The translations under genes were made by a program, and so were the position numbers. Positions 5,616-63,114 of a stretch of 63,114 bases of DNA are shown here, in pieces. Within the stretch, counting starts at the first letter, position 1. Every line of letters starts with the position of its first letter. Origin of the DNA: an uncultured Gammaproteobacteria bacterium (lineage in GTDB: Bacteria > Patescibacteriota > Microgenomatia > UBA10105 > UBA927); assembly GCA_964596355.1 (NCBI GenBank), contig CAZQTD010000005.1:1-63114 (forward strand), in the 5' to 3' direction. The notes under the pieces were generated by a model. The model was not told the DNA's origin. It did not search any database and was given only the letters and a program-made list of their open reading frames with translations.

Positions 5616-5695
5616 CGTATAGAGAATAGGAATAGCGCATAGAGAATAGCGTATAGTTAGTATTACCTAAACGCTATTGACGAAACGCTATTCAA
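5616..5695. repeat. Heptamer-type degenerate repeats arranged as inverted blocks (AATAGCGT / ACGCTATT)
   Basis: AATAGCGT at ~5646 pairs with ACGCTATT at ~5671 and ~5685. Confidence 0.7.
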
Positions 5696-5702
5696 CCTGC
5701 CT

Positions 5703-7283
5703 ATGTGGCTACACTTTATACTTGAAAACATCCATTTTGCCATAAACTTGTTTGCGGCCCTCACGTTCTTTGCCGTGTTTTGGCTCTACATTGATGCGTG
5801 GGAGGAGCGCAAAAGCGCGCACATACTTGGGAAAATCGTCGGGTATCTCCTTCTTTCTCTTTCATTTCTCCTTTCCGGACTAGAAGTTGAGTCTACTATT
5901 GTGGCAGTGCCGATTTTTGGGGAAGCCATCCGTACGATGCTACTTTCGGGCGTGCGGATTCTGGCGTATCTTTTCCTTATTGCTGGCGTAGCAAGCGAAC
6001 CGCTCGAACCGCTTCCCACACGTCCCGCCAATACCGTCGCCGTCTTTCTTGGGATTACCGGATGATCCTTTATCCTTCACCCGATTGCCGCGTCGATCAT
6101 CGCGTTTTTATACCTTCGGCGGGCAACAGTCGGGCTTGAACATCATATCAAGCCGGTGGCGTTTGGATTTTTCCTTATTGCCCTGTCGGAGCTTGTTTCC
6201 ACTGCCGCGCTGTTTCGCGATACGGCGTGGGTATCGCTTTACCGATTGGTCAGTCCCTTTGGGATGTTTTGGATGGTGGAGCATGCGCTGTTGTGCGTGG
6301 GGATTATCATCATCAGCCGCTGGGTATTTGCGTATCTGTTTAAACAATTCCACACGCAGCTATTTATGATCATCACAACCATGATACTTGTCATTTTCCT
6401 TGTTACCACCGTATCATTTAGCGGACTTCTGGTAAAAAACGTTCAGGATGAAAGTTTGCGTCAGCTTGAAACCGATGTTTTGGTGCTTCGCTATTCGCTC
6501 GAAAGTAAAAAATCCCAGCTTGTTTCTGACGCGCAGATGATTTCACAAAATCAGGCAATCATCCAAGGCGTCACGCAACAGAATCGCATGGAATTGGCGA
6601 AGCTGGCAAGCGAGTATTTGTTGACAAAAAAACAAAGCACGCTCCTTGTGGTAAATGAATCCGGCCAACTTATCGCCCGCGGAGAAGACCGCGATCGTAT
6701 CGGAGAATCGCTCTCCGGCGATACGCTGGTTAAGCGTGCGCTTTTGGGAGAATCGGTTGCGTCTGTGGTGACGACGGAGGGGGTGGTGGCGCCGATGGTG
6801 AGCATCCGCGCGGCTGTTCCCATCCGGGGAGAAAACAATGCCGTCATCGGCGCCGTCATTGTTGGCGAGGCAGTGGACAGCGCGTATGTGGACGGGCTCA
6901 AGAAAGCCACCGGGCTTGACGCATCGATCTACGCGGATATGACCGTGAGCGCAACGACGTTCCTTGCGCCGGACGGCGCGTCCCGCATGGTCGGGATGAA
7001 GGAAAACTCTTCCCGCGTCAAAGACAGGGTACTGAAGGATACCATGCAGTACACCGGGTCTGTGCCGGTTTTGGGTACGCCGTACTTTGCGTCATTTTTG
7101 CCGCTTGCCGATGCGGACAACGTGCCAGTGGGGATGCTCTTTGTCGGCAGGCCGCAAGTACATGTCCTGGCTGCCGCCGGAAGATCCATTGAGCTGACGT
7201 TTCTGGTGACGTCACTACTCCTTGTTCTTTCGATAGTTCCGGCATTTATGATATCGACGTTTATCAGCAGCCAGTTGGAATAG
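5703..7283 (+). pseudogene. Multi-TM membrane protein with extracellular Cache-like domain, interrupted by in-frame TGA at 6063-6065
   Basis: ORFs 5703-6065 and 6156-7283 share a frame; reading through gives ...FLGITG*SFILHPIAASIIAFLYLRRATVGLEHHIKPVAFGFF... with no further stop. Confidence 0.75.
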
Positions 7284-7286
7284 CGC

Positions 7287-12559: not shown

Positions 12560-12958
12560 ATGGCTAAATTGATTTTGGTCATCGAAGACGATCCGTTGAT
12601 GGCGCGGATGTACCAGAAGATCTTTAAATTTGAAAAATACGATGTGGCGCTTGCCGGTAACGGCGAAGAGGGCTTGGAAAAGGCACGGAAATGTAATCCT
12701 AGTCTCATTCTCCTGGACATCATGATGCCTAAAATGAACGGGTTGCAGGTATTGGAGAAGCTCAAAGACGATCTTGATACAAAGAAAATTCCCGTCGTCA
12801 TGCTGACGAACCTCGCCGGCGAAAAAGATGCGGAAAAAGCGCTCATCAAAGGCGCGGTCAAATATATCGTCAAAAGCCAACACGAGCCCAAAGAAGTCGT
12901 CAAAATCGTCAAAGAAATCATCGCCGCTCACTCAAGAGATGATGTGCCGGAGAGCTAG
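12560..12958 (+). CDS. Single-domain response regulator (CheY-like receiver)
   Basis: IEDD, LILLDIMMPKMNG, MLTN, KYIVK receiver motifs. Confidence 0.92.
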   Translation: MAKLILVIEDDPLMARMYQKIFKFEKYDVALAGNGEEGLEKARKCNPSLILLDIMMPKMNGLQVLEKLKDDLDTKKIPVVMLTNLAGEKDAEKALIKGAVKYIVKSQHEPKEVVKIVKEIIAAHSRDDVPES

Positions 12959-12964
12959 GAGAAT

Positions 12965-13036
12965 TTCTAATTTCTAATTGACCTAAATAAGCACCAATGA
13001 CTAAATTGGGACATTGGGATTTTTTAGAAATTAGAA
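12965..13036. repeat. Heptamer repeat footprint with perfect 13-bp inverted repeat TTCTAATTTCTAA / TTAGAAATTAGAA
   Basis: 12965-12977 is the reverse complement of 13024-13036; inner CCAATG/CATTGG also pair. Confidence 0.8.
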
Positions 13037-14562: not shown

Positions 14563-14699
14563 CCGTCATCAGCACATTGGTTTTTCCAGTGAGAACAGGT
14601 ATAATACGACCATACGGATGTGTTTTTACGAGTTTCGCCTTATGAACGTCACGACATCCGAGGATCCTTGAGACACGATTGTTCTTTGAGCCCAAAGCG

Positions 14700-14719
14700 T
14701 AGCTTTGTCGACAAAGCTA
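14700..14719. repeat. Perfect 20-bp palindrome TAGCTTTGTCGACAAAGCTA
   Basis: Self-complementary by direct reading. Confidence 0.85.
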
Positions 14720-14748
14720 AGCTTTTATACACATTCGTTGGTATTAGT

Positions 14749-15069
14749 ATGTCTTTCCACGACGATAAACTTTGGCAGCAGGCGTATGTGGCGGTTTTGG
14801 ACATTTTGGAAGCTACAGACGCGCTTGATCAGGCGGATATTGTTTCGGAGGTACGCAGGTACGCGATGATGGTGCTGACTGTTACGTCTGACGCCGTTTC
14901 CCGCCGAGACAGGAGAGAGCGCGACGCTAAACTCCGAGACGCATACTTTAGGACGGTTGCGCTCCGAAGTCTTCTTTCGGTCCTGTGGGCCAAAGAGATC
15001 TTAAGCGATGATGCGTTCGGCAAACTCGACAGCGCCCTCGAAGGACTTTCCGCCGCATTGCCCGCGTAA
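14749..15069 (+). CDS. Divergent four-helix-bundle protein
   Basis: 'FHDDKLWQQAY' resembles the F.DL.VWQKA N-terminus; ~106 aa, all helical. Confidence 0.55.
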   Translation: MSFHDDKLWQQAYVAVLDILEATDALDQADIVSEVRRYAMMVLTVTSDAVSRRDRRERDAKLRDAYFRTVALRSLLSVLWAKEILSDDAFGKLDSALEGLSAALPA

Positions 15070-15233: not shown

Positions 15234-15279
15234 TAATTAATATATTTGACTACCACGTGGTAGTCAAATATATTAATTA
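15234..15279. repeat. Perfect 46-bp palindrome (23-bp arms, no loop)
   Basis: TAATTAATATATTTGACTACCAC|GTGGTAGTCAAATATATTAATTA. Confidence 0.92.
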
Positions 15280-15894: not shown

Positions 15895-15971
15895 ATTCCA
15901 TTATTCCATTGCTCCGTTGTCATATTATAGTGCAGTATGCCAAGGAAGCTATGGAGCAATAAGTTGGATAC

Positions 15972-16742: not shown

Positions 16743-18650
16743 ATGAGCGATAGTAAAACGCTTGCGCTTCTTGCCCGCCGCATACGTTACGACATCCTCA
16801 CCATGACCACGCGCGCAGGAAGCGGGCACCCGACCTCCTCGTTATCCGCTGTTGAGCTTATGACCGTTCTGTTTTTTAACTATCTTCGCTACGATGTAAC
16901 CAATCCCACAAATCCCGGCAACGACCGCGTAATTTTTAGCAAAGGCCACGCGTCGCCGCTTTACTACGCGCTCTACGCGGCAGCAGGTGCGCTCACGCAA
17001 AAAGATTTAGAAGGCTACCGCACGTTTGACAGCACGCTCGAAGGCCATCCTACGGCGCGGTTCACATACACAGAAGCTGCTACCGGCTCACTCGGGCAGG
17101 GTCTTTCGATCGGATTGGGGGAAGCATTAGCGCTTCGTCTGCAGAGTGGTAACGCTCCTCCCCGCGTGTTTGTCCTTGCCGGAGACGGCGAGCTTGCAGA
17201 AGGCGCGGTGTGGGAGGCGGTTGCTGCCGCGAGCTTTCGAAAGGTCAACAATCTCTTTCTTCTGTGTGATATTAACCGTCTGGGTCAGTCGGATCCGACA
17301 ATGTACGAGTACGACCTTGGAATGTACAAGAAACGCTTCGAAGCGTTTGGGTGGCGCGCGGTGATTGTTGAGGATGGCAATGATATTGAAGCAATAGATC
17401 GAGCATACATCGATACCTTTAAAGGTCCGACCCTTCAAGGGGGGTTGACAGTAATTCTGGCGAAAACGAAAAAAGGTGCTGGGGTTTCGTTTTTGGAAAA
17501 TGCCGACAGTTGGCATGGGAAGCCGTTGTCAAAAGAAGAACTTACGAAGGCCGTGGCGGAGTTGGGGGACATTGACCTAACGCGTGTTGGAACCGTTCAA
17601 AAACCAGAGAATATTCGCGGGTTATCATTCGCGGGTGATCATACCGACAAAACCTTTTCGCATACGCCGCCAAAAGCGAACTATGACCCAGCGAAACCTG
17701 TCGCAACCCGCAAGGCATTCGGAAATGCGCTCAAGCGTTTGGGGGCGAGTAATCCGCGTCTGATTGTTATCGATGGTGATGTCAAAAATTCTACCTACAC
17801 GGAATATTTTGGCAAGGAATTTCCGGAGCGATTTTTTGAGCTGTTTATCGCGGAGCAAAACATGGCGGGTGTTGCTACCGGACTTTCCGCCCGCGGATTT
17901 CGCCCGGTGGTTTCTTCGTTTGCGTGTTTTTTGACGCGCGCTGCGGACCAATTTCGCATGGCGTCATTTTCCGCAGTCAACATGATTGTCAACGGATCTC
18001 ACGCGGGCGTATCTATCGGCGCAGACGGACCGTCGCAGATGGGACTTGAGGATCTTGCGATATTTCGTGCGATTCATGGGTCGACCGTGCTGTATCCTTC
18101 GGATGCCTATTGCACGGAAGCGCTCGTTGAAGAGGCGCTTAAAGCTGGCGGCATCGTTTACATCAGAACGACGCGCCCCGAAACACCGATCCTCTACGAC
18201 GCAAAAGAGTCGTTTCCCATCGGCGGCAGTAAAGTATTTGAGCAGTATAACAAGACGGCAATGAAACAATGCGTGGCAACCGTCGTCGCAGCGGGAATAA
18301 CACTTCATGAATCTCTTAAAGCGCAAAAGGAACTGGCATCCCAAGGTATGTATGTCCGCGTCATCGATTGTTATTCCATCAAGCCTATAGATCAAAAAAC
18401 ATTGCACGCCGCTGCCAACGATTCCAAGGCTATCATTGTCGTTGAAGACCATTACCCCGAAGGAGGATTGGGAGAAGCTGTCCAATCTGCACTCTTTGCC
18501 AGCAACAGGGCTCGACCCTGTCGAGTGGTGCATCTGGCTGTCACCAAAACGCCCCGAAGCGGCAAGTCGGGCGAGCTTTTAGCATATGAAGGAATTGATG
18601 CGCAAGCGATCATCAAAACAGTCCGTTCACTGATTTCTATCCATGAGTAA
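16743..18650 (+). CDS. tkt: Transketolase
   Basis: GSGHPTSSLS, SKGHA, GSLGQG, GDGELAEG, IAEQNM, EDH. Confidence 0.95.
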   Translation: MSDSKTLALLARRIRYDILTMTTRAGSGHPTSSLSAVELMTVLFFNYLRYDVTNPTNPGNDRVIFSKGHASPLYYALYAAAGALTQKDLEGYRTFDSTLEGHPTARFTYTEAATGSLGQGLSIGLGEALALRLQSGNAPPRVFVLAGDGELAEGAVWEAVAAASFRKVNNLFLLCDINRLGQSDPTMYEYDLGMYKKRFEAFGWRAVIVEDGNDIEAIDRAYIDTFKGPTLQGGLTVILAKTKKGAGVSFLENADSWHGKPLSKEELTKAVAELGDIDLTRVGTVQKPENIRGLSFAGDHTDKTFSHTPPKANYDPAKPVATRKAFGNALKRLGASNPRLIVIDGDVKNSTYTEYFGKEFPERFFELFIAEQNMAGVATGLSARGFRPVVSSFACFLTRAADQFRMASFSAVNMIVNGSHAGVSIGADGPSQMGLEDLAIFRAIHGSTVLYPSDAYCTEALVEEALKAGGIVYIRTTRPETPILYDAKESFPIGGSKVFEQYNKTAMKQCVATVVAAGITLHESLKAQKELASQGMYVRVIDCYSIKPIDQKTLHAAANDSKAIIVVEDHYPEGGLGEAVQSALFASNRARPCRVVHLAVTKTPRSGKSGELLAYEGIDAQAIIKTVRSLISIHE

Positions 18651-19161
18651 AGCGGGATACGAATATCTTATCACCTATCATTATGCAGAAGAGATATTCG
18701 ATCTCACTGCACAGTTTGCCGACCGATTTCTCGCTGGTCGAGAGCACGTGCGAACCCGTGAGCAAATGGTCCAGGCAGCAAGATCTGGTAAGCAAAACAT
18801 CGTTGAAGGGTACATGGAGAAAAGCACAAAAGGTTATATTAAGCTTTTGGATATAGCCCGCGCGTCGTTGGAAGAGCTTTTAGAAGACTATCGGGATTTT
18901 GCCAGAAGAAAGGGAATTGAGCTCAGGGATAAGTGGGATAAGAGAGAGAACGGGGAGAAGGGGAAATACCACATTCTCCTTCTTGACCCTCTTCACCCAC
19001 TTGACCCCTTTATCCCGGTGAATTATCTGGTAAACCTTATACGACGGACAACATATTTGCTTGATCGTCAAATTTCAGCGCTTGAGCATAAATTTGTGAC
19101 GGAAGGCGAATATACAGAAAAACTATTTCAAAAACGGTTATCATATAGGAGGGGTGCATGA
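18643..19161 (+). CDS. Four-helix-bundle protein with suffix domain
   Basis: 'GYEYL...RTREQMVQAARSGKQNIVEG...ARASLEELLEDYRDF...LLDRQI..LE.KF..EG' family pattern; overlaps tkt stop and tal start. Confidence 0.88.
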   Translation: MSKAGYEYLITYHYAEEIFDLTAQFADRFLAGREHVRTREQMVQAARSGKQNIVEGYMEKSTKGYIKLLDIARASLEELLEDYRDFARRKGIELRDKWDKRENGEKGKYHILLLDPLHPLDPFIPVNYLVNLIRRTTYLLDRQISALEHKFVTEGEYTEKLFQKRLSYRRGA

Positions 19162-22487: not shown

Positions 22488-23360
22488 GTGGCAAAATACG
22501 TACCGGACGTCAAAACCCAGCGGTGGGTCGTGATTGCGCCCGTGAGAACAACACGACCCGAAGATTTCAGTCGGGACTCAAGCATCCCTGCATTGAGAAG
22601 CGAAGCGCCGAAGTGTCCATTCTGCCCCGGCAACGAAGCACTGACTCCGCCGGAAGTCTACCGCATCGGCCCGGGAGAAAAAGACAAACCCGGGTGGCGT
22701 GTGCGCGTGGTTCCCAATAAATATCCCATTACCGATATCCATGAAGTGTTTATCCATAGCGCCAGTCATGATGATAATGTAGAGAGACTGCCTCTTGAAC
22801 ACGTTGCAACGATTCTTTCTTGCTACCGCGATCGGTATCGCGCGCACGCCACTGACGGACAGGTTCTTATTTTTTGCAATCACGGCTTTCATGCAGGGGC
22901 GTCACTGGCGCACCCGCACTCGCAGCTTGTGGTAGTGCCAAAGCAGATCAATCTGGATTCTCTGTCGCGCGAACCGATCAATAACGTGGTAGAAGAACAA
23001 GCGCATTTTGTAACGTATTGCCCTGATTTTTCCCAATGGCCGTATGAGGTATGGATTGCGCCCAAAGAAGAAGGGCACAAATTTGATGACATACAGGATG
23101 GGGAAGTAAAAGATTTAGCAGTAGTTTTTCAAAAGGCGCTGAAGAAAATCGAACGGGTGTACAAAAAATCTCCCATCAAGCCAAAAGACCGTACGGATGA
23201 TGCTTTTGTCTATAACTATTACATCTCGCACAGCAATAACTGGTTTATCCGCATTGTTCCTCGGTTTATTCACCGTGCCGGATTTGAACTGGGGACCGGA
23301 CTTAATGTGAATATCGTCGATCCTGCAGAAGCGGCGAGAGAACTGCGAGATATTTCGTGA
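22488..23360 (+). CDS. galT: Galactose-1-phosphate uridylyltransferase (HIT superfamily)
   Basis: CPFCPGNE, VRVVPNKYP, GASLAHPHSQ. Confidence 0.9.
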   Translation: MAKYVPDVKTQRWVVIAPVRTTRPEDFSRDSSIPALRSEAPKCPFCPGNEALTPPEVYRIGPGEKDKPGWRVRVVPNKYPITDIHEVFIHSASHDDNVERLPLEHVATILSCYRDRYRAHATDGQVLIFCNHGFHAGASLAHPHSQLVVVPKQINLDSLSREPINNVVEEQAHFVTYCPDFSQWPYEVWIAPKEEGHKFDDIQDGEVKDLAVVFQKALKKIERVYKKSPIKPKDRTDDAFVYNYYISHSNNWFIRIVPRFIHRAGFELGTGLNVNIVDPAEAARELRDIS

Positions 23361-23385: not shown

Positions 23386-23586
23386 CTACATTTGCCCTTT
23401 CTGTTGCAATCCCAACAGCCACAAAACAGCTTCTTTTTTGTAGCGCCTGTCGCCGCGTGAGTTGATGCGGATGGCAGGCAGTTTGCCGCGTTTGCCCCAG
23501 CGTTTGATTGTCAAGGGGCTGACGCGCAGTATTTTGGCAACCTCTCGAACGGTAAGTAAATCTGGCCAGTCATCTCCGAGTGACAT
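23386..23586 (-). CDS. Small excisionase-like helix-turn-helix DNA-binding protein
   Basis: 'LLTVREVAKILRVSPLTIKRWGKRGKLPAIRINSRGDRRY'; TTGACA-17-TACTGT upstream. Confidence 0.88.
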   Translation of the reverse strand: MSLGDDWPDLLTVREVAKILRVSPLTIKRWGKRGKLPAIRINSRGDRRYKKEAVLWLLGLQQKGQM

Positions 23587-23944
23587 ACGGGACTCCTTTA
23601 CAGCGAGCAGGCGAACGAAGTACGAAACAATACGATCGTTTGTGTTCATAACAGTACAACGCCGGTCAAACATTGTCAAGAGGTATCAAATGTGTTCAGG
23701 AGATGTGGATATGGTGTTGATGCGGGAATACGTTGTGCGACATGTCATTTCGGGAAATATAGTATGGTGGTACGCATACTATTATCCTGTTTTTTGTCCC
23801 ATAGCATATCTTTTTGGCGCTTACTATTCGTGAGTGCGCAACGAAAAATAATTCCATAGCATTCATCGTATGTGAGTGCAAATGCGAAACAGAATTTGAC
23901 AATCTCAAAAAGTCTGGATCCATTTTTTGTGGTATCATAATGCC

Positions 23945-26444: not shown

Positions 26445-27734
26445 CTATTTCCACGCAATCTTCAAAAAGTGGGTGGCACAGCTCATGCATGGGTCGTAGG
26501 CGCGGATAATTTTTTGTATTTCTGTCGTGAGCACATCTTTGGATTGATCGAGGTGTGTGGATACGTAGTCGCGGATAGATCGCTCAATACCGATTTGATT
26601 TTGGCCCGTGGGGACGATAACCCTTGATTTGACCACGGCGCCCTCGGAGCTCATGTCCACTTTATGAAACAGGGTCCCGCGCGGCGCCTCTATGATGCCA
26701 ATGCCCGCGGCTTGTCTGGGGGCGAATGATACAGGTTTTTCTTCCTGTCCCTGATACTGATTGATTAAATCGATACTTGCGTCTACTGCGTGGAGCATTT
26801 CTATGGCTTGCGCGAGGTTATTATGAAAAATGTTGTTCGATGGAAACTGCGCAAGCGCCTTGGCGGCATCCGCTTTTGTTTTAGGATGGAGAGCGTCGCT
26901 ATTGAGGTTCAGGCGGGCAAGCGCGCCCACCATGTGAATGTGATCGTCAAACAGGTAGCCGGTCGCTTGAGAGTAGGGAATTTCCCGGCGTTTGAGGCGC
27001 GACTCAAACTCTTCTGGAGCGATCGTGGCATTGTCGCTGGTTTTTATCGTTCCTTCGAGGAATGAAAACTCCGCGTCAACCAGCGCGAGAAACTTGAGGT
27101 CTTGCATAAGGTTAAACGGACACTTCAAAAAAACGTCGATCAGCTGAAGGATTCGCGGCCGAACCTCGGTTAACACCGGAATCAACGCGCGCAGATCTTC
27201 TTTTTTCGGCAGTATGGTGAATCCGCCGACAGTCACGTGCGGCGCGTGCACGCTCCTGCCGCCGGATGCAATGCTTACTTTATTCCCTGCTTCTTTAACG
27301 GCAAAACAGTCGTGGACTAACGCGTGTTCTTCGGGACTGTTATCATCAAACGCGAGAATCGACTCACGATTATAAAGGTCGGGCAGGGCAAATACGTACA
27401 GATGGAGTCCGTGATCTCGGATGATGAGTCCGTAGTTGAGGAGCTTGCGAAGCACTGTTGTTTGCTTAGAAACCTCAAGTCCCAGTCCGCTTTCTACCGC
27501 CTTGAGGCTTGCCAGAAGATGCGCGTTACTGCACGTGCCGCAGATGCGGGAAAGCAAATGGGGAAGACTTGTTATCCTTTTGCCGCGCACCGCCTGTTCA
27601 AAGAATCTGCGCATTTCTGCAATGCCGAACTTGCACTCGGCAAGAACGCCCTCGCGGATTTTTATGTCCAAGCGCGCCGCACCTTCGATTTTGGTGATTT
27701 CTTCAAGCGACAGATCGAGATTGGCGGTATGCAT
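26445..27734 (-). CDS. NiFe hydrogenase large subunit, group 3b-like
   Basis: KIEG, L1 RICGTC, EAPRG, L2 DPCMSCATH plus short C-terminal tail FLKIAWK. Confidence 0.92.
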   Translation of the reverse strand: MHTANLDLSLEEITKIEGAARLDIKIREGVLAECKFGIAEMRRFFEQAVRGKRITSLPHLLSRICGTCSNAHLLASLKAVESGLGLEVSKQTTVLRKLLNYGLIIRDHGLHLYVFALPDLYNRESILAFDDNSPEEHALVHDCFAVKEAGNKVSIASGGRSVHAPHVTVGGFTILPKKEDLRALIPVLTEVRPRILQLIDVFLKCPFNLMQDLKFLALVDAEFSFLEGTIKTSDNATIAPEEFESRLKRREIPYSQATGYLFDDHIHMVGALARLNLNSDALHPKTKADAAKALAQFPSNNIFHNNLAQAIEMLHAVDASIDLINQYQGQEEKPVSFAPRQAAGIGIIEAPRGTLFHKVDMSSEGAVVKSRVIVPTGQNQIGIERSIRDYVSTHLDQSKDVLTTEIQKIIRAYDPCMSCATHFLKIAWK

Positions 27735-27739
27735 GTATT

Positions 27740-27810
27740 ACTTCATTGACTCATTGCTTCATTGGTTTCATTGCTTTAAGACAATGAAACAGTGGAACAG
27801 TGAAACCATC
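27740..27810. repeat. Octamer repeats in inverted blocks (TCATTGCT.. / CAATGAAA..)
   Basis: GTTTCATTG 27765-27773 pairs with CAATGAAAC 27782-27790, flanked by further octamer copies. Confidence 0.75.
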
Positions 27811-27820
27811 GGATGAGACT

Positions 27821-28306
27821 CTAGTCCCTGACGATCTTGAATTCTTTAAGATACCTGTCTAGCAATTCTAAAAACGGTTTCTCATTCATCGGACAGCCGT
27901 TGACTTCCGCATCCACTGTCACAATCTCACGGAGACATTTCACGGTGTCTGCCTGTTTGAAGCGAGCAAGAAGCGCCCTGATTTCCTCTTTGGTTGGTGC
28001 GTCAAAACGGTTCCGTTGCGCGCTTGGCAAACCCGTGCACGCGCACGCGCCGATAGCAACGAGCTTGGTGGAAAGCGAGCGGATTGTTTTGAGTTTTTCC
28101 GCGTGTTCATCTGAACAAATCGCTCCTTCGACAAAGGCCACATCCATGGGCTCCCATTTGTTGGTGTTCTGCAAAACCCGCGCGTGGACAAACTCAATAT
28201 TTTCTTTCCACTCCTTCCAGCGGGTATTCATAAGCTCCATGAAGATAATCGTGGAATCTTCACAACAGGTAAAGGTAAACCATCCGACGCGAAGCTTCTT
28301 TGCCAT
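27821..28306 (-). CDS. NiFe hydrogenase small subunit (NADH-ubiquinone oxidoreductase 20 kDa-like fold), short form
   Basis: TCCEDS, FVEGAI, VAIGACACTG, NGCPM. Confidence 0.9.
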   Translation of the reverse strand: MAKKLRVGWFTFTCCEDSTIIFMELMNTRWKEWKENIEFVHARVLQNTNKWEPMDVAFVEGAICSDEHAEKLKTIRSLSTKLVAIGACACTGLPSAQRNRFDAPTKEEIRALLARFKQADTVKCLREIVTVDAEVNGCPMNEKPFLELLDRYLKEFKIVRD

Positions 28307-28350
28307 ACACGTATTGTAACAAAAGTACCGGAGTTTATTAATCACGTATT

Positions 28351-28817: not shown

Positions 28818-28921
28818 AAATCCTAAATTCCAAATTCTACATCCAAAATAAATTCAAATGCTCAAAATTCTAATTAGAAATTGAAACCTTGATAGTATTT
28901 TGGATTTTGAGTTTAGGATTT
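28818..28921. repeat. Heptamer repeat footprint with nested inverted repeats, overlapping rplJ 3' end
   Basis: AAATCCTAAA 28818-28827 / TTTAGGATTT 28912-28921; ATCCAAAATA 28841-28850 / TATTTTGGAT 28896-28905. Confidence 0.8.
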
Positions 28922-29446
28922 TGAATTTTTTATGCCATTAAGCGCCCATACGAGTCTATTGATATTCCAGCTTAATGCGTCGTGCAGTCTCTGGATTGGC
29001 GCGTTGAGGTTTGCAACAAATTTGGTCCGTAGGATATCGGCGGAGGGCAGTTGCGCCAGTCTGGCGACCTCTTGGTGATCTAGTGCGTTGCCGGAAAGGA
29101 AGCCGCCTTTAATGCTTCCCGCGCCTGCGCTGGCAAAAAACTTCATAAGCTCTTTAATCGGCGACACTTCATCCGCGTACGCAAACAGTGCAGCGCTTGA
29201 ATCGGAGAGAAATGTTTTGACAGCATCCGTATTGCTTTCTTCGCCGCGGGGCAGGCCGTCAAGCGATCGAAGCATGAGTCTGTTTTTAACAACGACGAAT
29301 TCTCCCTCAACCTTTTTAAGGAGCTTTCGGAGTTCTTCCAGCTGTTTGTGCTTCAGGCCTTTATAGTTAGCAAACACGATAGACTTTGCTTTTGCCACCT
29401 TATTTGCGAGTTTGGCAACAGTATCGATTTTTTTCTGTGTTGGCAT
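28913..29446 (-). CDS. rplJ: 50S ribosomal protein L10
   Basis: KK..V..L..K, YKGL, VVKNRL, KGGFL, LAQLPS. Confidence 0.95.
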   Translation of the reverse strand: MPTQKKIDTVAKLANKVAKAKSIVFANYKGLKHKQLEELRKLLKKVEGEFVVVKNRLMLRSLDGLPRGEESNTDAVKTFLSDSSAALFAYADEVSPIKELMKFFASAGAGSIKGGFLSGNALDHQEVARLAQLPSADILRTKFVANLNAPIQRLHDALSWNINRLVWALNGIKNSKS

Positions 29447-30156: not shown

Positions 30157-30945
30157 ATGAAGCGAACAGCGGCTGACCTCCTGTTAGATCTTTCAGATGG
30201 TGCAATTAGCACGGTCGTTGATTTTACACTATGGTTTGTGGCGTTTAGCGCAGCGCTTTCGGTACCGCAATCGACGGTCGGTCAGCTTTACCGCGCACGC
30301 CGAACTGCGGATCGGTTTCTTTGGAAGATCAATTACGACGTTATCAAACGCGGATTAGCCGAAGCAAGGCGCAGGCACTGGTTTAAGCGAGGGAAAAAAG
30401 GAAAACGGGCGTGGCCTGAAATAACAAAAGCAGGAAAAAAGCGTTTTGCGGCGCTGTTTCCTGTATACGACGAAAAACGGATTTGGGACGGCGACATGTA
30501 TTTAATTACGTATGATATCCCTGAAAAGCGGCGCAATGACAGAGACCTTATCAGGGACTATGCCAAGCGGATACGAGGAGCAAAGCTCCAAGAGTCGGTC
30601 TATCTGACGCCGTATGATCCCAGAAAGCTGATTGCTGAATTTATCGAAACCCACAGGATACAGGGGACGATCATCATATCTGACATCGGAAAAGATGGAT
30701 CCATAGGAGATGAATCGCTAACGGAGCTAGTATACAGAGTGTATGGCCTTGACGCGCTCAACGAGCGATACAAAGAGTGGCTAACTGAAGTAAAAGGCGA
30801 AACCATCGATCATTGGGCTGCGCTGCGGTATTTGTCGATTCTACGCGATGACCCGCAGCTGCCTTTTCCGCTGTTGCCTCCATGGTGGAAAGGAAAAGAA
30901 GCGTACGAGCGCGTAAAGCCGTTCCTAAAAAATATGGTAAAATGA
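30157..30945 (+). CDS. PaaX-like regulator: wHTH-like region, Cas2-like central domain, PaaX_C-like tail
   Basis: 'EITKAGKKR', 'WDGDMYLITYDIPEKRR..RD', 'KLQESVYL', 'DDPQLPFPLLPPWWKG..A'. Confidence 0.85.
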   Translation: MKRTAADLLLDLSDGAISTVVDFTLWFVAFSAALSVPQSTVGQLYRARRTADRFLWKINYDVIKRGLAEARRRHWFKRGKKGKRAWPEITKAGKKRFAALFPVYDEKRIWDGDMYLITYDIPEKRRNDRDLIRDYAKRIRGAKLQESVYLTPYDPRKLIAEFIETHRIQGTIIISDIGKDGSIGDESLTELVYRVYGLDALNERYKEWLTEVKGETIDHWAALRYLSILRDDPQLPFPLLPPWWKGKEAYERVKPFLKNMVK

Positions 30946-30977: not shown

Positions 30978-31008
30978 CTTGGAAAGTATTGGAAAACATT
31001 AATTTGAT

Positions 31009-31074
31009 ATGGCTATGGTTATGACTATGACTATGACTATGACTATGACTATGACTATGGTCATAGTCATGGCT
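31009..31074. repeat. Hexamer microsatellite (ATGACT)6 with degenerate flanking units
   Basis: ATGGCT ATGGTT (ATGACT)x6 at 31021-31056, then ATGGTC ATAGTC ATGGCT. Confidence 0.92.
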
Positions 31075-31404
31075 ATTGGTAGGACTATTGTTATGGTTAT
31101 TGCTAGAAGGCGTTGTATGGAGGGTTTTTCTTATGCTAGTTGCGCCATCAGGTATTTCAGATTGGCTCCAGTTAAGCTTATCCTCTAAACGTTTGTAAAA
31201 AGCGCTTCACAGCATGCAATTGCAGTTAATGCGGGGGGAAGAGTAATTGATGGCATCGACCACGCGTATTGCCCGCGAAACTGGCTTCGTGCGAACTAAA
31301 GAAACACAGCGTTTTGCGGGTTTTGCGCATCGAGTTGACCTTGATGAGATACAATACCAACCGCGCAAGCGTTTTGTGCGAGCGCATCATCCGGGGACGG
31401 GTAG

Positions 31405-32307
31405 TTAGACAAGAGCGAGTTTAATTCCCGGCCCCATGGTGGCAGTCAGCGTCGCTTTGGTGATTTTGCCCGGGCCGATGGCTTTAATGACCGCAGAAAC
31501 GTTCTCTATGAGCTTTTTGTCATCGAATGACACTTTGCCCACGCTCATATGGATGATGGGCTGATCGGGTTCAGTTTTAACGTGCACACTCCCGCTGCGC
31601 AGCTCTTCGGCGCGCTTTTCGGGATTGTCTGTTACTGTTCCATTCTTTGGGTTGGGCATCAGGCCCTTTGGTCCTAATATGCGTGCAACCTTTGCAAGCT
31701 TGGGCATCATGCTTGGGTGGGCAACAAGAATGTCGAAAGCAATCCTGCCGGCTTCAACGTCTGCCACAAGGGCGTCATCGGCTATAGCCACCGTCACTTC
31801 CTTGCCGGTTCCATGAGGGAGGTTCACGGTAGCGCGCATATCTTTCTTGTTTTCAAGGGTGAGAGGATTGAGGTTTAGATGAAGTTCCACCGTGCCGTCG
31901 AACTTCGTGAGGCTGGTTTGTTTCACCAGACTGACGGCGTCGCGCAGCGAGTACTGTTTGGTTTTATCAACCAGCGACGCTTTTTCCGTGTACCTTTTGC
32001 TTCTTGTACGCGCCTTTTTTTGTTTCTTTTTGCCGCCGCCCTTGTCCGCCGAAGCATCGCCGGTTGTCGGCGGTTCGCCGCTGTGGACCTCCTCGATAAG
32101 CTTTTTAAATTCCGGTTTAATCTCCGTGCCTTCAACGACCGCGACGCGTTCTCCGCCATGAAGCCCAACGCCTTCCACTCGTTGCTTGCCCCGAGTTTTT
32201 TCGAGGGTTTTTTTGGACTTTTTGGTGTCGCGCCTTGCTTCTGCACGACGGCGCTGCTCTTTTTCAAGAGATTCATCGCCCAATGTGGCAACTCTAATTT
32301 TACCCAT
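31405..32307 (-). CDS. rplA: 50S ribosomal protein L1 with ~100-aa charged N-terminal extension
   Basis: TKFDGTVE, LPHGTGK, ILGPKGLMPNPKNGTV, TMGPG. Confidence 0.95.
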   Translation of the reverse strand: MGKIRVATLGDESLEKEQRRRAEARRDTKKSKKTLEKTRGKQRVEGVGLHGGERVAVVEGTEIKPEFKKLIEEVHSGEPPTTGDASADKGGGKKKQKKARTRSKRYTEKASLVDKTKQYSLRDAVSLVKQTSLTKFDGTVELHLNLNPLTLENKKDMRATVNLPHGTGKEVTVAIADDALVADVEAGRIAFDILVAHPSMMPKLAKVARILGPKGLMPNPKNGTVTDNPEKRAEELRSGSVHVKTEPDQPIIHMSVGKVSFDDKKLIENVSAVIKAIGPGKITKATLTATMGPGIKLALV

Positions 32308-36900: not shown

Positions 36901-37272
36901 GCCGAGAGCAAATGAGAGGCCGCTGCATTTTATATCGCCGCCGCATTCCCAGCAGGTGGAGTTTGTTTGCCCCAGCTCTTCAGACGAGCCGCACAGCGGC
37001 GCGCGCACCGAGTCAACAGAGTTTGCTTCGGTTTGAAAGTCACAGCAGACGGAATACGTGCCGTTGGGAAGCTGATTGCCTCCGGTACATTGAGCGCTTC
37101 CTGAAATATCCAGCCGATAATTCATCCGCGGGTATTTGCCCTGCTGCCGGCAAATTTGGGCTTGGGAAGGAGAATTATCGATTAGTTTGCACGCCGCCCA
37201 GACACGTGAGGGAAGCGAAAGAAAAAAGAAAATAAACAACAAAATTCCCAGCAACAGCACGGGTTTCTTCAT
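33994..37272 (-). CDS. 1092-aa secreted protein: Cys-rich N-terminus, GH-A clan-like domain, C-terminal lysozyme/lytic-transglycosylase-like domain
   Basis: Signal peptide; 'PVNEPN' and 'IAETG' catalytic-like motifs; 'ILEAVKYIETG...AGPFQIT...AIMLAGNRYFG'. Confidence 0.6.
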   Translation of the reverse strand: MKKPVLLLGILLFIFFFLSLPSRVWAACKLIDNSPSQAQICRQQGKYPRMNYRLDISGSAQCTGGNQLPNGTYSVCCDFQTEANSVDSVRAPLCGSSEELGQTNSTCWECGGDIKCSGLSFALGGTSSEITAMSNRAQIAGTDEDINNTWRVINVPESFTFNGIPYESNGRGLVICNANVLGCGDAEGVCHNILFPNIGHEPGTPDQCQLFTFTSAPITVVQSTAPITGPVRNSKGCINIGDWAGGRGGSIEGALSAMERLSVRGWVYIMARPEWFDSIAATISQHPQYNYMIRLHYPGTPLDEGWATAWGDALARNASRLTTRVWLMPVNEPNVQISDRQVDPLTVRVFISALAARLNNAGVLNTRYLLTSPMIDPYQVADQGTGYLDALGGKQFFSQFAAFAIAPYGQYSGSQLDGTAHAYKQGLIADLAARYAPGKPIVIAETGVALLGNDPLVVYSGAANQTVDYLTRSRGNWQNAIATCMFNYDPDRQGVDNKWLYSNQNVLRALFGLGPGASVMRAQSIAPSSDPVTVNYETCLFDATYQRVGEAPIPSNKTFGCVDDGKFVFCISDAVHHLFGEAFPHQQKTNVPPVSREARQLKTASPYLTPLTIQEVTTNIPEVDKPGDKPLAISFSGSVCAPESETQTWFLPTGIWETPYLDNSVLLQFSEITAATIGRHKMDPAAFNFPPRYPNRIIKDKDGPRCDERDHGTAIETVQLDNFNKHKYYEGSEFYSAAIHLSQSLIQRVLQGIASGNLCPLSVCNITKNLQKFMKLGSFIPYSDEMNQFVKGETKGFTNAFLPMTVLNRIMPIDHSETDQMIAQGPAIGTGGEPVLGKLILNHIAGIKTNIYAMNCAILPMSKQKEHGFNCEDFRSDSSVANTSTWALEGDTTPLDQDFSIPLDTSDVGKAITEATQGKIPRCILEAVKYIETGPGWEPSTQCRINRCSAAGPFQITTGYAPYPMPDGVYQMPPGSAGTQLSNQCRQCGSSWADGSRTCPDAWNNNWPMTPSDISPCDINASARQAVSILQQKSQGLSNSPPQSQARAIMLAGNRYFGSAASIPRLNGCSYGEYIYQHCVPSYQCGTANPGI

Positions 37273-42201: not shown

Positions 42202-42214
42202 TGTTCGTTTATTG

Positions 42215-42428
42215 GTTAGTTCGTTAATTCGTTAGTTCGATTATATCTCAAATTTTTGAGTGAGAGGTACACATTCATACCATGATCCTTGAGCAATAGT
42301 AAGAAATCGATATTCATTTGGCCATCGGCTTGTAACGTGATATATCAGAAGAGAAAATTGGAAGGCCTCTTGATAGACCCGGAGTTCTTCAAATGTAAAC
42401 TTCATGTGCTTCGAATTAACGAACTAAC
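42215..42428. mobile_element. Four-helix-bundle remnant flanked by a perfect 17-bp inverted repeat made of octamer repeats
   Basis: GTTAGTTCGTTAATTCG 42215-42231 / CGAATTAACGAACTAAC 42412-42428; mobility is inferred. Confidence 0.55.
42241..42405 (-). pseudogene. Internally deleted four-helix-bundle gene (54 aa) not in the supplied ORF track
   Basis: MKFTFEELRVYQEAFQFSLLIYHVTSRWPNEYRFL-TIAQGSWYECVPLTQKFEI*; central SQ.RRA..S...NIAEG segment missing. Confidence 0.75.
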
Positions 42429-42444
42429 GCGTGTTGCCAACTAA

Positions 42445-42618
42445 CTAATCCAGTTTACTTGACTCTTTGTGCTCCGTATGTTTTCTGCAGCGGCGGCAAT
42501 ACTTTTTGAGCTTGAGTTTCTCGGGTGTATTGAGTTTATTGCGTGTTGTGACGTAGTTTTGCGATTTACACACCGTACACACCAGAGCAAAGAGTTCTCG
42601 CTGTTCCTTTTTTGCCAT
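42445..42618 (-). CDS. rpmG: 50S ribosomal protein L33 (zinc-ribbon form)
   Basis: CTVCKSQNYVTTRN, LKKYCRRCRKHTEHKE. Confidence 0.95.
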   Translation of the reverse strand: MAKKEQRELFALVCTVCKSQNYVTTRNKLNTPEKLKLKKYCRRCRKHTEHKESSKLD

Positions 42619-53820: not shown

Positions 53821-53893
53821 GGTGTTCACGGTGAGCGGTTGACGGTTCACCGAGAAACGGATGTGGAGTATTATGAACGATGAACTATGAACG
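53821..53893. repeat. Heptamer repeat footprint (GTTCACG/GTTGACG .. TGAACGA/TGAACTA)
   Basis: GTTCA-containing units followed by complementary TGAAC units. Confidence 0.65.
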
Positions 53894-54441
53894 GCCAACT
53901 GCGCGCAGCCGCTATCATCTCTCGCGTTTTTGAACCTGCGTTGACGCTGTCCATGGCGTTTATTGTCTATGCTGCGCACGCGGGCATTGCGGCGGGTCGT
54001 ATTGCGCTGTGGGCTGCGGTCATTATTTTCCCTCCCATGACGCTTCGCATCTGGGCGCATCAGGCGAAGGGGCTCGATTGGGATATCCATGAAAGGAAGA
54101 AGCGCGTGGTGCCGCTCCTTATTTTGCTTTTCCTTCTTGCGTTTGATCTGGTGCTTTTTTGGCTGTTTGAGCCGCGGCTTCTGGGGGCGTTGGCTCTCTT
54201 TTTTCTCTGGACAACGGGTTTTTTCATTATCACGAAATACTGGACCAAAATATCGGGCCACACGAGCGCCAACGCGCTTGCGTCAGGAATGGTTGTCCGC
54301 ATCTTTGGATGGCGCTTCTGGCCGGTTCTTCTCATCGTTCCCCTTGTTGCGTGGGCGCGCGTAATACGCAAGGATCATACGGTGGGCCACGTTGTCTTGG
54401 GGGCGGCGTATTCATGGGGATTGTTGGCGTGCGGCGTATGA
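53887..54441 (+). CDS. PAP2-like integral membrane protein
   Basis: 'KISGHT', 'WARVIRKDHTVGHVVLGA'. Confidence 0.65.
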   Translation: MNGQLRAAAIISRVFEPALTLSMAFIVYAAHAGIAAGRIALWAAVIIFPPMTLRIWAHQAKGLDWDIHERKKRVVPLLILLFLLAFDLVLFWLFEPRLLGALALFFLWTTGFFIITKYWTKISGHTSANALASGMVVRIFGWRFWPVLLIVPLVAWARVIRKDHTVGHVVLGAAYSWGLLACGV

Positions 54442-60615: not shown

Positions 60616-60627
60616 TATAATGGCTTC

Positions 60628-61164: not shown

Positions 61165-61218
61165 GCCTGCTTGCCCTGAATTTTTCGAATGGGCCGGAGG
61201 GCGGCATTATCTAAAAAG

Positions 61219-61935
61219 ATGAAGCAACGATCCACCCTGGTTATTCTTGCCGCATTGTTTCTTCTTTCTTTTTACGGATTCAGCCGATTCGTCAGAAGCG
61301 GGGCGATGGACGCGGTTGATTTCGCATTTACTGTCAAGCTGCAGGAGCGCATTGACACGTCCCCGCGGCTTCGTACCGCACGGCTCATCGGGGAGATCAT
61401 GGAAGGATCGACGGTGCTGGTAAGTCCGGCGGTTTCCATTTTTGCCGTGCTGTCGCTTGCAGGGGTGTTAGCTATGCAGGGGTTGCTTGCGTCCGGTGCG
61501 TTCAGCGGACGGCTCGCGCCCTTCCAACGACTCCGGTGTTTCGCGCGGCCGATTGCGCTCCTTATTGCGTTTGGACTATTGGCGCTTGGAGAGATCTATG
61601 GCAAAACCGTCGTTGACCAGCCCGCGCCGCCGTTTTTCATGATCAAAAATCCGACAACCGTCTTCCCGAAATATCATGTGGTGGAAACGTTTAGCTACCC
61701 TTCCGGCCACGCCGCGCGGGCAGTGTTTCTTGGTATCGTACTGTTTTTTTTAGCAATGAAACAATGGAGCAATGGAACAATGAGAAAAAGATTGTGGGTA
61801 ATTCTGGGGCTGGGACTCTACGGAGGACTTGTCTCAATCAGTAAGATCTACCTGGGCCACCACTGGCTTTCCGACGTCATCGGCGGGGGACTCCTCGGGG
61901 GCGGCATGGGATTTGTGTCATTAGCATTATTATAG
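61219..61935 (+). CDS. PAP2 family phosphatase
   Basis: SYPSGHAAR, SKIYLGHHWLSDV. Confidence 0.85.
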   Translation: MKQRSTLVILAALFLLSFYGFSRFVRSGAMDAVDFAFTVKLQERIDTSPRLRTARLIGEIMEGSTVLVSPAVSIFAVLSLAGVLAMQGLLASGAFSGRLAPFQRLRCFARPIALLIAFGLLALGEIYGKTVVDQPAPPFFMIKNPTTVFPKYHVVETFSYPSGHAARAVFLGIVLFFLAMKQWSNGTMRKRLWVILGLGLYGGLVSISKIYLGHHWLSDVIGGGLLGGGMGFVSLALL

Positions 61936-62982
61936 TTGCACCACGACTGCGGTTATATCGTCGGGCTTAGAACGCGTCATGCCCAAGGCGCCCGCCACAC
62001 TCTCCTTGTAGGCAGCGTCAATAAGCGCTTGGGCGAGCGATTGAGAAAAGGCCTCTTGTGATATATGAGAAGAAATAATCGCTTGGATTTCCGAGTTGCT
62101 AAGGTTGTCATGCACACCGTCTGTCGTGAGAATAACTGCAACATCGTCTTTCTCGAGCGCATAAAAGATAATCTGTGGATCCTCGTGAATGCCGTATGTT
62201 TCATGGCGACGGCCCCAAAACCACGTAAGCTTTATCTTATCAAATGAGTCAACCCCGCACTCATCGAGCGCGTTTTGGAGGCGTCGAAATTCATCAAGAG
62301 TATCCAAGGGTCCGGTGTCTCCGTTCGGGTCAGGACGCAGCTCCTCGTAGCGTCGTTGGAGTATCGGTGCGATATCTCTGGCATATTCTTCCTGACGCGC
62401 TTCAACATCGTGTCTCCCTTGAGCACTGTCTAGTACGGTATTTATAAACGTCAGCGCTTCCGGTTGCATGCGGAAAAATTGCAAGACGTTATTTTCGTCT
62501 GTCGTAAGCTGTACTATCGCTCCGTCTCTTTTCACCACGTACGCTCGGGAATCACCTGTGTGAACAATAGCTGCGTACCTTACCCCGTTTTCTTCGTAAA
62601 AGAGGACGGCGGTTGCTGTTGTGTCGCCGGTTTGCGCAATTTCCTCAATTGAGCGTTCTGCTACTTGCCACATCCATTGAGCAATATTGGTGATGGTATC
62701 GCGCGTGAGGTTCGGGGCATTACGACAGTGATAACCCATGTCTACTATGTGCTTGGCGGCAATCCACGCAGCCCGTTGGCCCTGCTCCAGCATTCCGTCG
62801 CATACACAGATTATCCCCAAATTTGAGTCAACTTTTGCGACATCCTCAATGTTTTGGGGATTTTCGTTTCGCGAGGAGCGTGTTGCTGTAGCCGCATCCT
62901 TCCAGAAGAGCTGGCCTGATGTATTCTCTCGGTTGCTTTGACCATCTTGAGTTGGTTCCGTATCTTCTGCCAGACAATCCAT
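61930..62982 (-). CDS. PP2C/SpoIIE-like protein phosphatase with large helical insertion
   Basis: NIED, CVCDGM, GDTTAT, HTGDSRAY, LTTD, TTDGVHD, DDITAVV; start uncertain. Confidence 0.85.
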   Translation of the reverse strand: MDCLAEDTEPTQDGQSNRENTSGQLFWKDAATATRSSRNENPQNIEDVAKVDSNLGIICVCDGMLEQGQRAAWIAAKHIVDMGYHCRNAPNLTRDTITNIAQWMWQVAERSIEEIAQTGDTTATAVLFYEENGVRYAAIVHTGDSRAYVVKRDGAIVQLTTDENNVLQFFRMQPEALTFINTVLDSAQGRHDVEARQEEYARDIAPILQRRYEELRPDPNGDTGPLDTLDEFRRLQNALDECGVDSFDKIKLTWFWGRRHETYGIHEDPQIIFYALEKDDVAVILTTDGVHDNLSNSEIQAIISSHISQEAFSQSLAQALIDAAYKESVAGALGMTRSKPDDITAVVVQL

Positions 62983-63114
62983 TATGAAAAAATTGATGAC
63001 AAAAGGCAAATGGTTGTTGACTGCTACAGACTACTGACGGCGAGTTGTTGACAATCACTTCTTAAAGTATCAGCAATTTAGTTTACATAACCGGTATCGC
63101 ACAAAGAAGCGACC

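Follow-up and report, generated by a model that had tools for sequence, protein, structure and literature searches.

Repeat Blocks at Operon Junctions

The window analysed here is the whole of a 63,114-nt stretch of DNA (positions 1 to 63,114 of contig CAZQTD010000005.1, assembly GCA_964596355.1), which is deposited as an uncultured Gammaproteobacteria bacterium and carries a GTDB lineage within the Patescibacteriota. The spacers of its operons contain repeat blocks in which tandem units of 7-9 nt are followed by a small loop and then by the complement of the units (Table 1). Probably they represent the mutually pairing ends of an 'intervening-sequence' (IVS)-type cassette that carries a gene of the four-helix-bundle (4HB) family, with mostly the ends alone left.

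Folding was assessed from the RNA minimum free energy (MFE) of each block relative to 200 dinucleotide shuffles, reported as z, and unit periods were read from the sequence and with Tandem Repeats Finder (TRF). A preliminary description of this DNA had listed nine blocks as repeats followed by their complements; seven of them are real hairpins of tandem units and complements, that at 15895 being marginal, and each fills a spacer between co-directional genes. The block listed at 53821 folds weakly and is a member by homology, whereas the hairpin proposed at 63010-63060 was not confirmed (z -1.35); this segment, at the edge of the window, consists for the most part of GTTGTTGAC in direct repetition and is not counted as a member. 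The statement that most blocks lie at operon gene junctions holds for every confirmed block: all occupy spacers with co-directional genes on both sides, at 0-15 nt from the stop and start codons, and, of the 21 spacers in the window that separate co-directional genes and measure 50 nt or more, blocks take up 8. The G+C content of the spacers is low (0.29-0.39).

Unit sequences differ from block to block according to TRF, and no sequence is common to the blocks. As a control for chance, a detector was used that asks for inverted 6-mer pairing in several registers, the signature of tandem arms; it returned six sites in the window, compared with a mean of 0.42 and a maximum of 4 in 100 dinucleotide shuffles. 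All six are intergenic, five being among the sites described previously and the sixth lying at 31008-31102. An earlier seed-cluster detector was dropped as too permissive (104 matches vs 85 in shuffles). No transposase was found among 40 window open reading frames (ORFs) scanned with Pfam, a scan that was not exhaustive, in agreement with the previous report of a transposase-free window. An Rfam scan of the window gave four tRNAs only and no rRNA; all window copies, like all 52 genome loci considered below, are placed between protein-coding genes and not in rRNA helices.

A perfect 25+25-nt A+T-rich palindrome that is not made of tandem units is present at 15234-15279 (fold z -9.5), in the 381-nt spacer upstream of rpiB.

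Table 1. Repeat blocks and 4HB-family genes in the window, with fold z-scores and matches to the multi-register detector.
Feature	Coordinates	Strand	Neighbouring genes	Units or sequence	Fold z	Detector	Remarks
ORF-less hairpin	5611-5693	+	753-aa AhpC/fn3 gene (stop 5615) / ORF 5703-6065	units AATAGCG/TATAGAG; complement CGCTATT	-3.2	yes	TRF period 7/20
ORF-less hairpin	12962-13036	+	response-regulator gene 12560-12958 / LytR_C gene 13046-	units AATTTCT; complement AGAAATT	-4.6	yes	
Marginal ORF-less hairpin	15895-15960	+	rpiB / rpe	two ATTCCATT units, then degenerate complement	-1.9		
ORF-less hairpin	27737-27806	-	Oxidored_q6 small / NiFe-hydrogenase-like large subunit genes	sense strand: units GTTYCAYT; complement CAATGAAR	-3.1	yes	
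ORF-less hairpin	28818-28928	-	rplJ / rplL	AAATYCY units	-3.7	yes	
Additional block	31008-31102		3' of rplA	(TATGAC)n, then GTCATA units	-4.8	yes	not in the preliminary description
ORF-less hairpin	32308-32378	-	rplK / rplA	TTCGTTA-type units like the 42203-42447 cassette	-3.9	yes	exact fill of the junction
5' arm of cassette (gene sense)	42406-42447	-	begins at rpmG stop codon	TAG TTAGTTGG...GTTAGTTCGTTAATTCG			
Decayed 4HB ORF (PF05635/TIGR02436)	42244-42405	-	rpmG / 174-aa gene				54 codons; best matches L004 and L032, same junction
3' arm of cassette	42203-42243	-	ends 1 nt before ATG of 174-aa gene	CGAACTAACGAATTAACGAACTAACCAATAAACGAACA			
Decayed ORF-less derivative	53822-53893	+	3' of mreB / ORF 53887-	left units GTTCACG/GTTGACG; right units ATGAACG/ATGAACT	-0.8		weak hairpin; member by homology to L018; start codon of ORF 53887- in right arm
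Second 4HB-family gene, 172 aa	18643-19161	+	transketolase / transaldolase				TIGR02436 N-terminal part and TIGR04258 suffix domain; PF05635 37.8 bits; found by family HMM

Remnant Cassette and Other 4HB-Family Genes of the Window

The block between rpmG and the 174-aa gene had been described as enclosing a 4HB remnant, and this proved correct. A perfect 17-nt inverted pair (42215-42231 / 42412-42428) surrounds 180 nt and lies inside arms of about 40 nt, which are paired in the MFE fold of 42203-42447 (z -2.3). The ORF between the arms, which translates as MKFTFEELRVYQEAFQFSLLIYHVTSRWPNEYRFLTIAQGSWYECVPLTQKFEI, matches full-length TIGR02436-type proteins of 120 aa with NIAEG and GSxxE motifs (phmmer E 3.5e-10) and a profile hidden Markov model (HMM) of the family (E 1.5e-15), while the remnant alone gives a weak, partial score below the cut-off against TIGR02436. 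According to the alignment, what survives is helix 1 and the first part of helix 3; helix 4 has been lost, and so have about 32 residues, among them those of the NIAEG motif. A word-based homologue search with the 54-aa remnant returned no match because it has too few 5-residue words in common with its relatives, which an exhaustive HMMER search did find.

Regarding the second 4HB-family gene of the window (18643-19161), its start and stop codons overlap those of the neighbouring genes, and an in-frame tandem/inverted 8-9-mer block at 18892-19017, inside the gene, encodes the middle of the protein (hairpin z -2.3). In the 149-aa ORF 14620-15069, the whole of the C-terminal 100 residues matches PF05635 below threshold (E 0.003), and the related locus L056 has a homologue of 53% identity; this may be an armless, divergent gene of the 4HB family.

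Association of 4HB Genes With Inverted Tandem Arms in Related Genomes

One genome per GTDB species was scanned with a three-sequence 4HB alignment, a seven-protein alignment having been dropped as query since it was too diverse, and 52 loci (designated L with a number) were obtained, from metagenome-assembled genomes (MAGs) of the Candidate Phyla Radiation (CPR), Planctomycetota, Bacteroidota and a few others. For the detection of arms, the 200 nt upstream of the 4HB gene were aligned to the reverse complement of the 200 nt downstream and compared with about 25 shifted controls per locus. The arm score was above every shifted in-locus control in 29 of 51 loci, the matched arms being tandem 7-8-mers such as (GTTCATG)n, (GTTCTTA)n, (TAGAAGCT)n, (GTTATTA)n and (GGTCTTT)n, and the arm period, read in 31 loci, was 7 in 22, 8 in 6 and 9 in 1. 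Whole-element MFE folds had the flanks paired over at least 15 bp in 29 of 46 elements and in 55 of 244 displaced controls. The proposals that the 4HB gene is the cargo of the element and that the element ends fold into a long hairpin are both supported, and the association of 4HB genes with inverted tandem arms extends to cyanobacterial plasmids as well.

From left to right, the complete cassette comprises an arm in which 3-7 units of 7-8 nt stand in tandem, a short leader, a 4HB ORF of about 115-125 codons and an arm of complementary units, and it is placed exactly from the stop codon of one gene to the start codon of the next, oriented like both neighbours. In 35 loci the 4HB gene has the direction of both its neighbours, and in 3 it is opposed to both; the gaps between the 4HB gene and its neighbours amount to tens of nucleotides, and the genes flanking the cassettes are housekeeping genes. 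As judged from its sequence, the ORF is a member of the family PF05635 (23S_rRNA_IVP) / TIGR02436 and a remote relative of Avd of the diversity-generating retroelements (DGRs); among the aligned 4HB proteins, PF05635 was matched by 27 of 27 and TIGR02436 by 26 of 27. The nearest solved structure is that of XCC0516 (PDB 2GSC; source X. campestris ATCC 33913).

Hairpin-only blocks are abundant in the relatives, with 50 detector matches in 514 kb against about 3.4 expected, a roughly 15-fold excess. They share unit families with the filled cassettes, as exemplified by four GTTCATG-type blocks in L017 and by GCTTAGAA at L054:5829. Stop codons in all three frames were detected in 18 of 31 left arms, a proportion matched by the right arms, and are therefore not taken as a signal. 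An exception to the inverted arrangement is L012 (4900-5400, Amesbacteria), where the repeats around the 4HB gene (GTTATTCGTTGTTCGTTAATCG / TCGTTGTTCGTTGTTCG) appear direct.

Filled, Hairpin-Only, and Unoccupied Alleles at Orthologous Junctions

The states of orthologous junctions were found by tblastn of window proteins against related loci, and the comparison of filled with empty alleles, which had been suggested as a check, was positive at rpmG|174-aa, rplK|rplA and mreB. For these three window sites only, descent from a cassette can be followed directly. The junction rpmG|174-aa, which holds the remnant in the window, has an intact 4HB gene with arms in L002, L003, L004, L006, L026 and L032, the L032 arm GTTAGTTCGTTAGTTGGTTACTTAG resembling the window arm GTTAGTTCGTTAATTCG. 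It is unoccupied in the metagenome relatives L057 and L058, with 6 and 13 nt from stop to ATG; the 174-aa protein of these two is the closest of all to that of the window (46-54% identity).

Similarly, rplK|rplA is filled in L007, where it reads TGA..[CTGAGTTTGTAGATCATAGATCATAGT]ATG-4HB-TAG[ACTATGATCTACGAACTAATAACTCAG]..ATG, and is hairpin-only with different units in the window (TTCGTTA-type) and in L054 ((GATAAGA)3). A 150-nt hairpin is present at this junction in L055, and in L056 the genes overlap with no spacer. Short direct repeats lie on both sides of the L007 cassette (4330-4800), GAAC and, further out, ACGGAGT; they might stem from a target duplication, or the ribosome-binding region might simply have been doubled.

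At the mreB junction, where L018 and the window have GTTCAYG-type units in common, L018 has (GTTCATG) at least six times, a 4HB gene and then ACTATGAACCATGAACTATAAAC, the right arm being of (CATGAAC)n type, and the next ORF starts in the right arm (MNYKLRVATIISRLF). In the window the same junction has GTTCACG/ATGAACG units, a leader-like stretch and the start of the orthologous ORF in the arm (MNGQLRAAAIISRVF), with no 4HB gene. The ORF in question is PAP2/LpxE-like (window 53887-54441; L018 2527-3054), and ATG AAC, its start codon and the codon after it, is found inside the right arm in both the empty and the filled allele, so the arm supplies the start of the next gene.

Regarding further junctions, the 25-nt spacer that separates genes 22488-23360 and 23386-23679 in the window corresponds, in L009, to a cassette between the homologues of these genes. 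In L056, rpiB|rpe is unoccupied with no spacer and rplJ|rplL is unoccupied with a 24-nt spacer, and rplJ|rplL of L054 has an AATTTNC/GAAAATT hairpin like that of the window. The 4HB proteins group by junction and not by genome, the pair from the same genome, L002 and L009, being less than 55% identical. Most copies are therefore vertically inherited, with loss of the ORF from time to time. The closest pairs from different loci are at most 65% identical, and no near-identical copies were seen. The unit family of the arms tracks the clade of the 4HB protein even across junctions (L009 with L032/L004).

Cassettes of Cyanobacterial Plasmids

A tblastn search of PLSDB with a cassette protein returned 20 plasmids, mostly of Nostocales, in which the gene is annotated as 'four helix bundle protein' or 'S23 ribosomal protein'. 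Six plasmid loci were compared; inverted tandem arrays were present on both sides in four, on one side in one and absent in one. In Anabaena sp. 90, (GGTGACA)n/(TGTCACC)n arrays surround a 4HB gene between cas6 and cas4, GGGGAAAA-type arrays were detected in Nostoc ATCC 53789 and Geminocystis, and (GGAGTCA)4 was detected in N. punctiforme. In some cassettes (L063), right arm and 4HB ORF overlap, at the 3' end of the latter.

The plasmids pNPUN02 of Nostoc punctiforme PCC 73102 and pNsp_c of Nostoc sp. ATCC 53789 carry the same operon, with DNA flanks 85-94% identical, and each has a cassette where the other has none. In pNPUN02 the cassette (NPUN_RS35280) lies between genes B and C (TAG|ATCAGGAGTCAGG...CTGGATTCTGATT|ATG), where pNsp_c reads TAG GTT ATG; in pNsp_c another cassette lies between C and D (TAA|cassette|ATG), where pNPUN02 reads TAA TTT ATG. 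The 4HB proteins of the two cassettes are 43% identical and their arms are unrelated. No target duplication was found at either insertion, the 3-nt spacers having been replaced. The reciprocal pair therefore indicates that the arms arrive with the ORF, exactly from stop to start and without target duplication, and, at the level of sequence comparison, it provides the cleanest case for insertion without target duplication or transposase.

A relative of the pNsp_c cassette, about 80% identical, is present at an unrelated locus of the same strain, on pNsp_b of Nostoc sp. ATCC 53789 (L066 1501-2238), where an insert of about 235 nt splits the 4HB gene into two annotated ORFs. About nine further plasmids of Nostocales retain the pNPUN02-type cassette at junction B|C, with identities of about 80%.

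Proposed Mechanism and Alternative Explanations

Cassettes of one architecture are found in several phyla and appear to move without a transposase and without target duplication, and decay or deletion of the ORF leaves hairpin-only blocks in which complementarity is kept while the units diverge between orthologues. The element is best filed as an IVS/S23p cassette at operon junctions together with its ORF-less remains. It does not belong to the strict rRNA IVS class because its location is not in rRNA and its excision by RNase III is only putative, and the idea is not wholly new, the same architecture being known for the intervening sequences of 23S rRNA.

In the mechanism proposed here, the cassette would have no promoter of its own and would be transcribed by read-through from the host operon. 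In the operon RNA, the arms would zip into a 20-45-bp stem with the insert looped out, which would bring the upstream stop codon beside the downstream start codon, so that translational coupling could survive. By analogy with the 23S rRNA IVS, the stem would most likely be cut by RNase III, and for this reason the operon may keep working in spite of the insertion; as an alternative to the cut, or as an effect beside it, termination-reinitiation might take place across the stem base. The tandem units would allow pairing in several registers and could be renewed by replication slippage.

Several observations weigh against this interpretation. Significant arms were not detected in 22 of 51 loci, chiefly the most distant Bacteroidales, and the 4HB-family gene at 18643-19161 has no flanking arms either. 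For the sites 5611, 12962, 15895, 27737, 28818 and 31008 we infer cassette descent from class resemblance only, and purely from the rRNA analogy we infer that RNase III cleaves the stem, or that the arms have any RNA-level role, in mRNA. No rnc gene or RNase III signature was found in the window or the related loci, a result that is uninformative for 63 kb. Given the overlap of the right arm with the ORF in some cassettes, and the loss of the ribosome-binding site upon cleavage of the Coxiella IVS, a cut would inactivate the cassette's own mRNA, and such self-inactivation fits poorly with an ORF conserved over long distances. The clustering of 4HB proteins by junction also means that most copies are old residents and that movement is rare.

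An alternative that we regard as unlikely, although the least unlikely of those considered, reverses the order of events: the hairpins would be host elements of the type of the short tandemly repeated repetitive (STRR) sequences, arisen in place by slippage and acting in mRNA stability, processing or translational coupling, and separate 4HB genes would enter their loops in the way that IVSs enter rRNA helices at the tips. Such an origin would agree with the large excess of hairpin-only over filled blocks, with the different unit in every window block, with the change of units between relatives at a single junction (TTCGTTA in the window and GATAAGA in L054 at rplK|rplA) and with the description of STRR hairpins at hupS-hupL as possible stabilisers or coupling elements (PMC2670836). 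It is weakened by the unoccupied alleles beside filled ones, which have 0-13 nt and no hairpin and which therefore indicate that the arms came with the ORF. It also leaves aside that the mreB block and L018 have arms, a leader-like stretch and an in-arm start codon in common, that a gene remnant is still held at rpmG|174-aa and that arm unit family follows 4HB protein clade even at another junction.

The absence of a transposase from the window would be expected if the blocks were non-autonomous DNA transposons resembling the miniature transposable elements with inverted repeats known as MITEs, mobilised in trans by a transposase elsewhere in the genome and carrying the 4HB gene as a passenger, and inverted ends, small intergenic size and presence/absence variation among relatives are likewise MITE-like. 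This origin is nevertheless very unlikely, since the copies have their own units, lack conserved terminal sequences and are not near-identical to one another, and the exact stop|start placement and the 35:3 bias towards the orientation of the host genes are untypical of cut-and-paste elements; the ORF, moreover, has remained intact over large distances. Target-site duplications, which such elements would be expected to leave, are absent from the two cleanest insertions, the Nostoc pair, and elsewhere there is only the uncertain 4-7-nt repeat of L007 (GAAC or ACGGAGT); tandem arms make the boundaries of the element hard to place. If the blocks were intrinsic terminators or attenuators of the ordinary kind, or low-complexity sequence arisen by chance in AT-rich spacers, hairpins in spacers of low G+C content would be accounted for, but this explanation is the least credible of all and hardly to be entertained: the blocks lie inside conserved operons (rplK-rplA, rplJ-rplL, rpiB-rpe, hydrogenase small-large), are A+T-rich with no U-tract, pair in several registers, exceed the chance expectation of the detector (6 vs 0.42) and have filled orthologues. 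The IVS-type cassette and its remains are thus the reading that we prefer.

A broader proposal, which we consider possible rather than probable and advance tentatively as a whole, is that PF05635/TIGR02436 genes with tandem 7-8-mer arms form one widespread, undescribed class of transposase-less cassettes. Its members would insert precisely from stop to start in operons, and also in rRNA helices, in CPR, Cyanobacteria, Planctomycetota, Bacteroidota and Proteobacteria; STRRs, the heptamer pairs of Xanthomonas and much of the bacterial excess of heptamer repeats would be their ORF-less remains; and the Avd-like 4HB protein would have a part in spread or in stem processing, possibly via an RNA intermediate. 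No literature linking 4HB/IVS ORFs with STRR-like arms at operon junctions was found in a search that did not extend to subscription-only literature, so that a prior description is possible.

If true, this would join the ORFs of 23S rRNA IVSs, the origin of which has been open since 1990-93, with STRR hairpins, the Xanthomonas pairs and 4HB genes wedged in operons, for example between cas genes. It would also point to an insertion cassette that loops itself out of the host transcript and in this way cancels the polar effect it would have, and in CPR genomes it would account for a sizeable share of the longer intra-operon spacers, as illustrated by the 8 of 21 in the window. The function of the 4HB protein and the mechanism of insertion are directly testable in cultivable Nostoc and Anabaena.

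Comparison With Known Elements

The rRNA IVSs of Leptospira, Coxiella burnetii, Xanthomonas and Brucella, and those of CPR 16S and 23S genes, are the closest counterparts. They share with the cassettes a PF05635/TIGR02436 ORF lying in the loop where terminal inverted repeats pair into a long stem, tandem heptamers by the ORF with varying copy number, decay of the ORF and absence of a transposase (PMC4990558, PMC11270868). The 23S IVS of Coxiella burnetii has a decaying S23p ORF of the 4HB family, a 28-bp stem of terminal inverted repeats and, before the ORF, tandem GACAGAT heptamers in a strain-variable number; the IVS is excised by RNase III, and an origin from a mobile element has been proposed but not settled (PMC4990558). 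The cleavage takes away the ribosome-binding site. 23S_rRNA_IVP ORFs are also present in insertions of CPR 16S and 23S genes (PMC11270868), and genes of the 4HB family have been noted between cas genes without explanation (PMC3936711). The cassettes described here differ in being located at stop|start junctions in mRNA instead of at the tip of an rRNA helix, in having both arms made wholly of tandem units and in the abundance of hairpin-only derivatives. Excision by RNase III is proven for rRNA IVSs and would apply to the cassettes by analogy only.

Regarding STRRs, heptamer hairpins of this type occur in cyanobacteria between hupS and hupL and elsewhere, with a function regarded as unknown (PMC2670836). 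They resemble the blocks in that tandem 7-nt units and their complement form hairpins between co-transcribed genes; moreover, the block at 27737-27806 lies between hydrogenase-like small and large subunit genes, comparable with the hupS-hupL hairpin, and STRR-type arrays flank 4HB genes in cyanobacterial plasmids. The differences are the CPR host, units unlike the classical STRR consensus and the lack of an STRR-4HB link in searchable papers. A cyanobacterial origin of the window was considered and dropped, as the highly iterated palindrome HIP1 is not enriched (4 copies vs 2.5 expected) and homologues of the ribosomal protein L1 of the window point to CPR, the best being from CPR/Patescibacteria, 72-74% identical and bearing Gottesmanbacteria or Patescibacteria names. 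The window belongs to a Microgenomates-like member of the CPR/Patescibacteria, and over the 6.6 kb available for comparison it is identical to a Logan assembly contig of run SRR10095374.

In Xanthomonas, convergent GGGAATC heptamer pairs are found at 70-75 per genome, and GGGGAYT repeats occur in Nostoc, in both cases of unknown function (PMC4692102, Rehm et al. 2015). These are likewise intergenic arrays, often in inverted pairs, of a length that varies between related strains (PMC4692102), but work on them has concerned the formation of G-quadruplexes, without description of an ORF or cassette enclosed by the repeats. Repetitive extragenic palindromic (REP) sequences, the bacterial interspersed mosaic elements (BIMEs) and REP doublets forming hairpins (REPINs) composed of them, and MITEs are also small palindromic intergenic elements, often within operons, that can affect mRNA stability. 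They are, however, conserved sequences with many near-identical copies and need a REP-associated tyrosine transposase (RAYT) or an insertion sequence (IS) transposase, whereas here the units are particular to the copy, none of the 40 ORFs scanned encodes such an enzyme and a 4HB ORF is part of the full element. Specifically, neither an IS200/IS605-like RAYT gene among these ORFs nor a palindrome common to the blocks was found. With Avd of DGRs, the 4HB proteins have remote homology, the bAvd family of Pfam matching 12 of the 27 aligned proteins and the NCBIfam Avd family 16 of the 27, all weakly; the scores are far below the Avd cut-off, and neither a reverse transcriptase nor a template/variable repeat pair is found beside the cassettes.

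Other Observations on the Window and Its Relatives

The ribosomal protein L1 encoded at 31405-32307 is 300 aa long and its Pfam match is split in two. Its close relatives are all of 285-300 aa, so an L1 insertion of about 60 residues is carried by this CPR lineage. Between rplA and rplJ lies an antisense PaaX_M-like ORF (30157-30945) with a weak Cas2-like match, whose homologue in the nearest relative (L054 1236-2129, 48% identity) lies between nusG and rplK; the differing positions indicate that this gene changes place within the ribosomal protein cluster, and both copies are bordered by repeat hairpins.

Neither Pfam nor NCBIfam gave a match for the 1092-aa ORF at 33994-37272, which is located between the secE and NTP-transferase genes, and the GTDB species representatives contained no relative; with L055 the identity is only 34%, over 338 residues. 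Immediately downstream of rplL, at 26445-28345, this CPR genome encodes an Oxidored_q6 small subunit (174 aa) and a large subunit of NiFe-hydrogenase-like type (429 aa). CPR-type gene order and proteins were also observed in MAGs labelled as uncultured Gammaproteobacteria (L003, L005-L008, L011, L013-L015, L017, L018, L022, L024, L026 and L054), and these labels look wrong. One of these assemblies is the source of both L054 and L022, and its L1 is the closest to that of the window.

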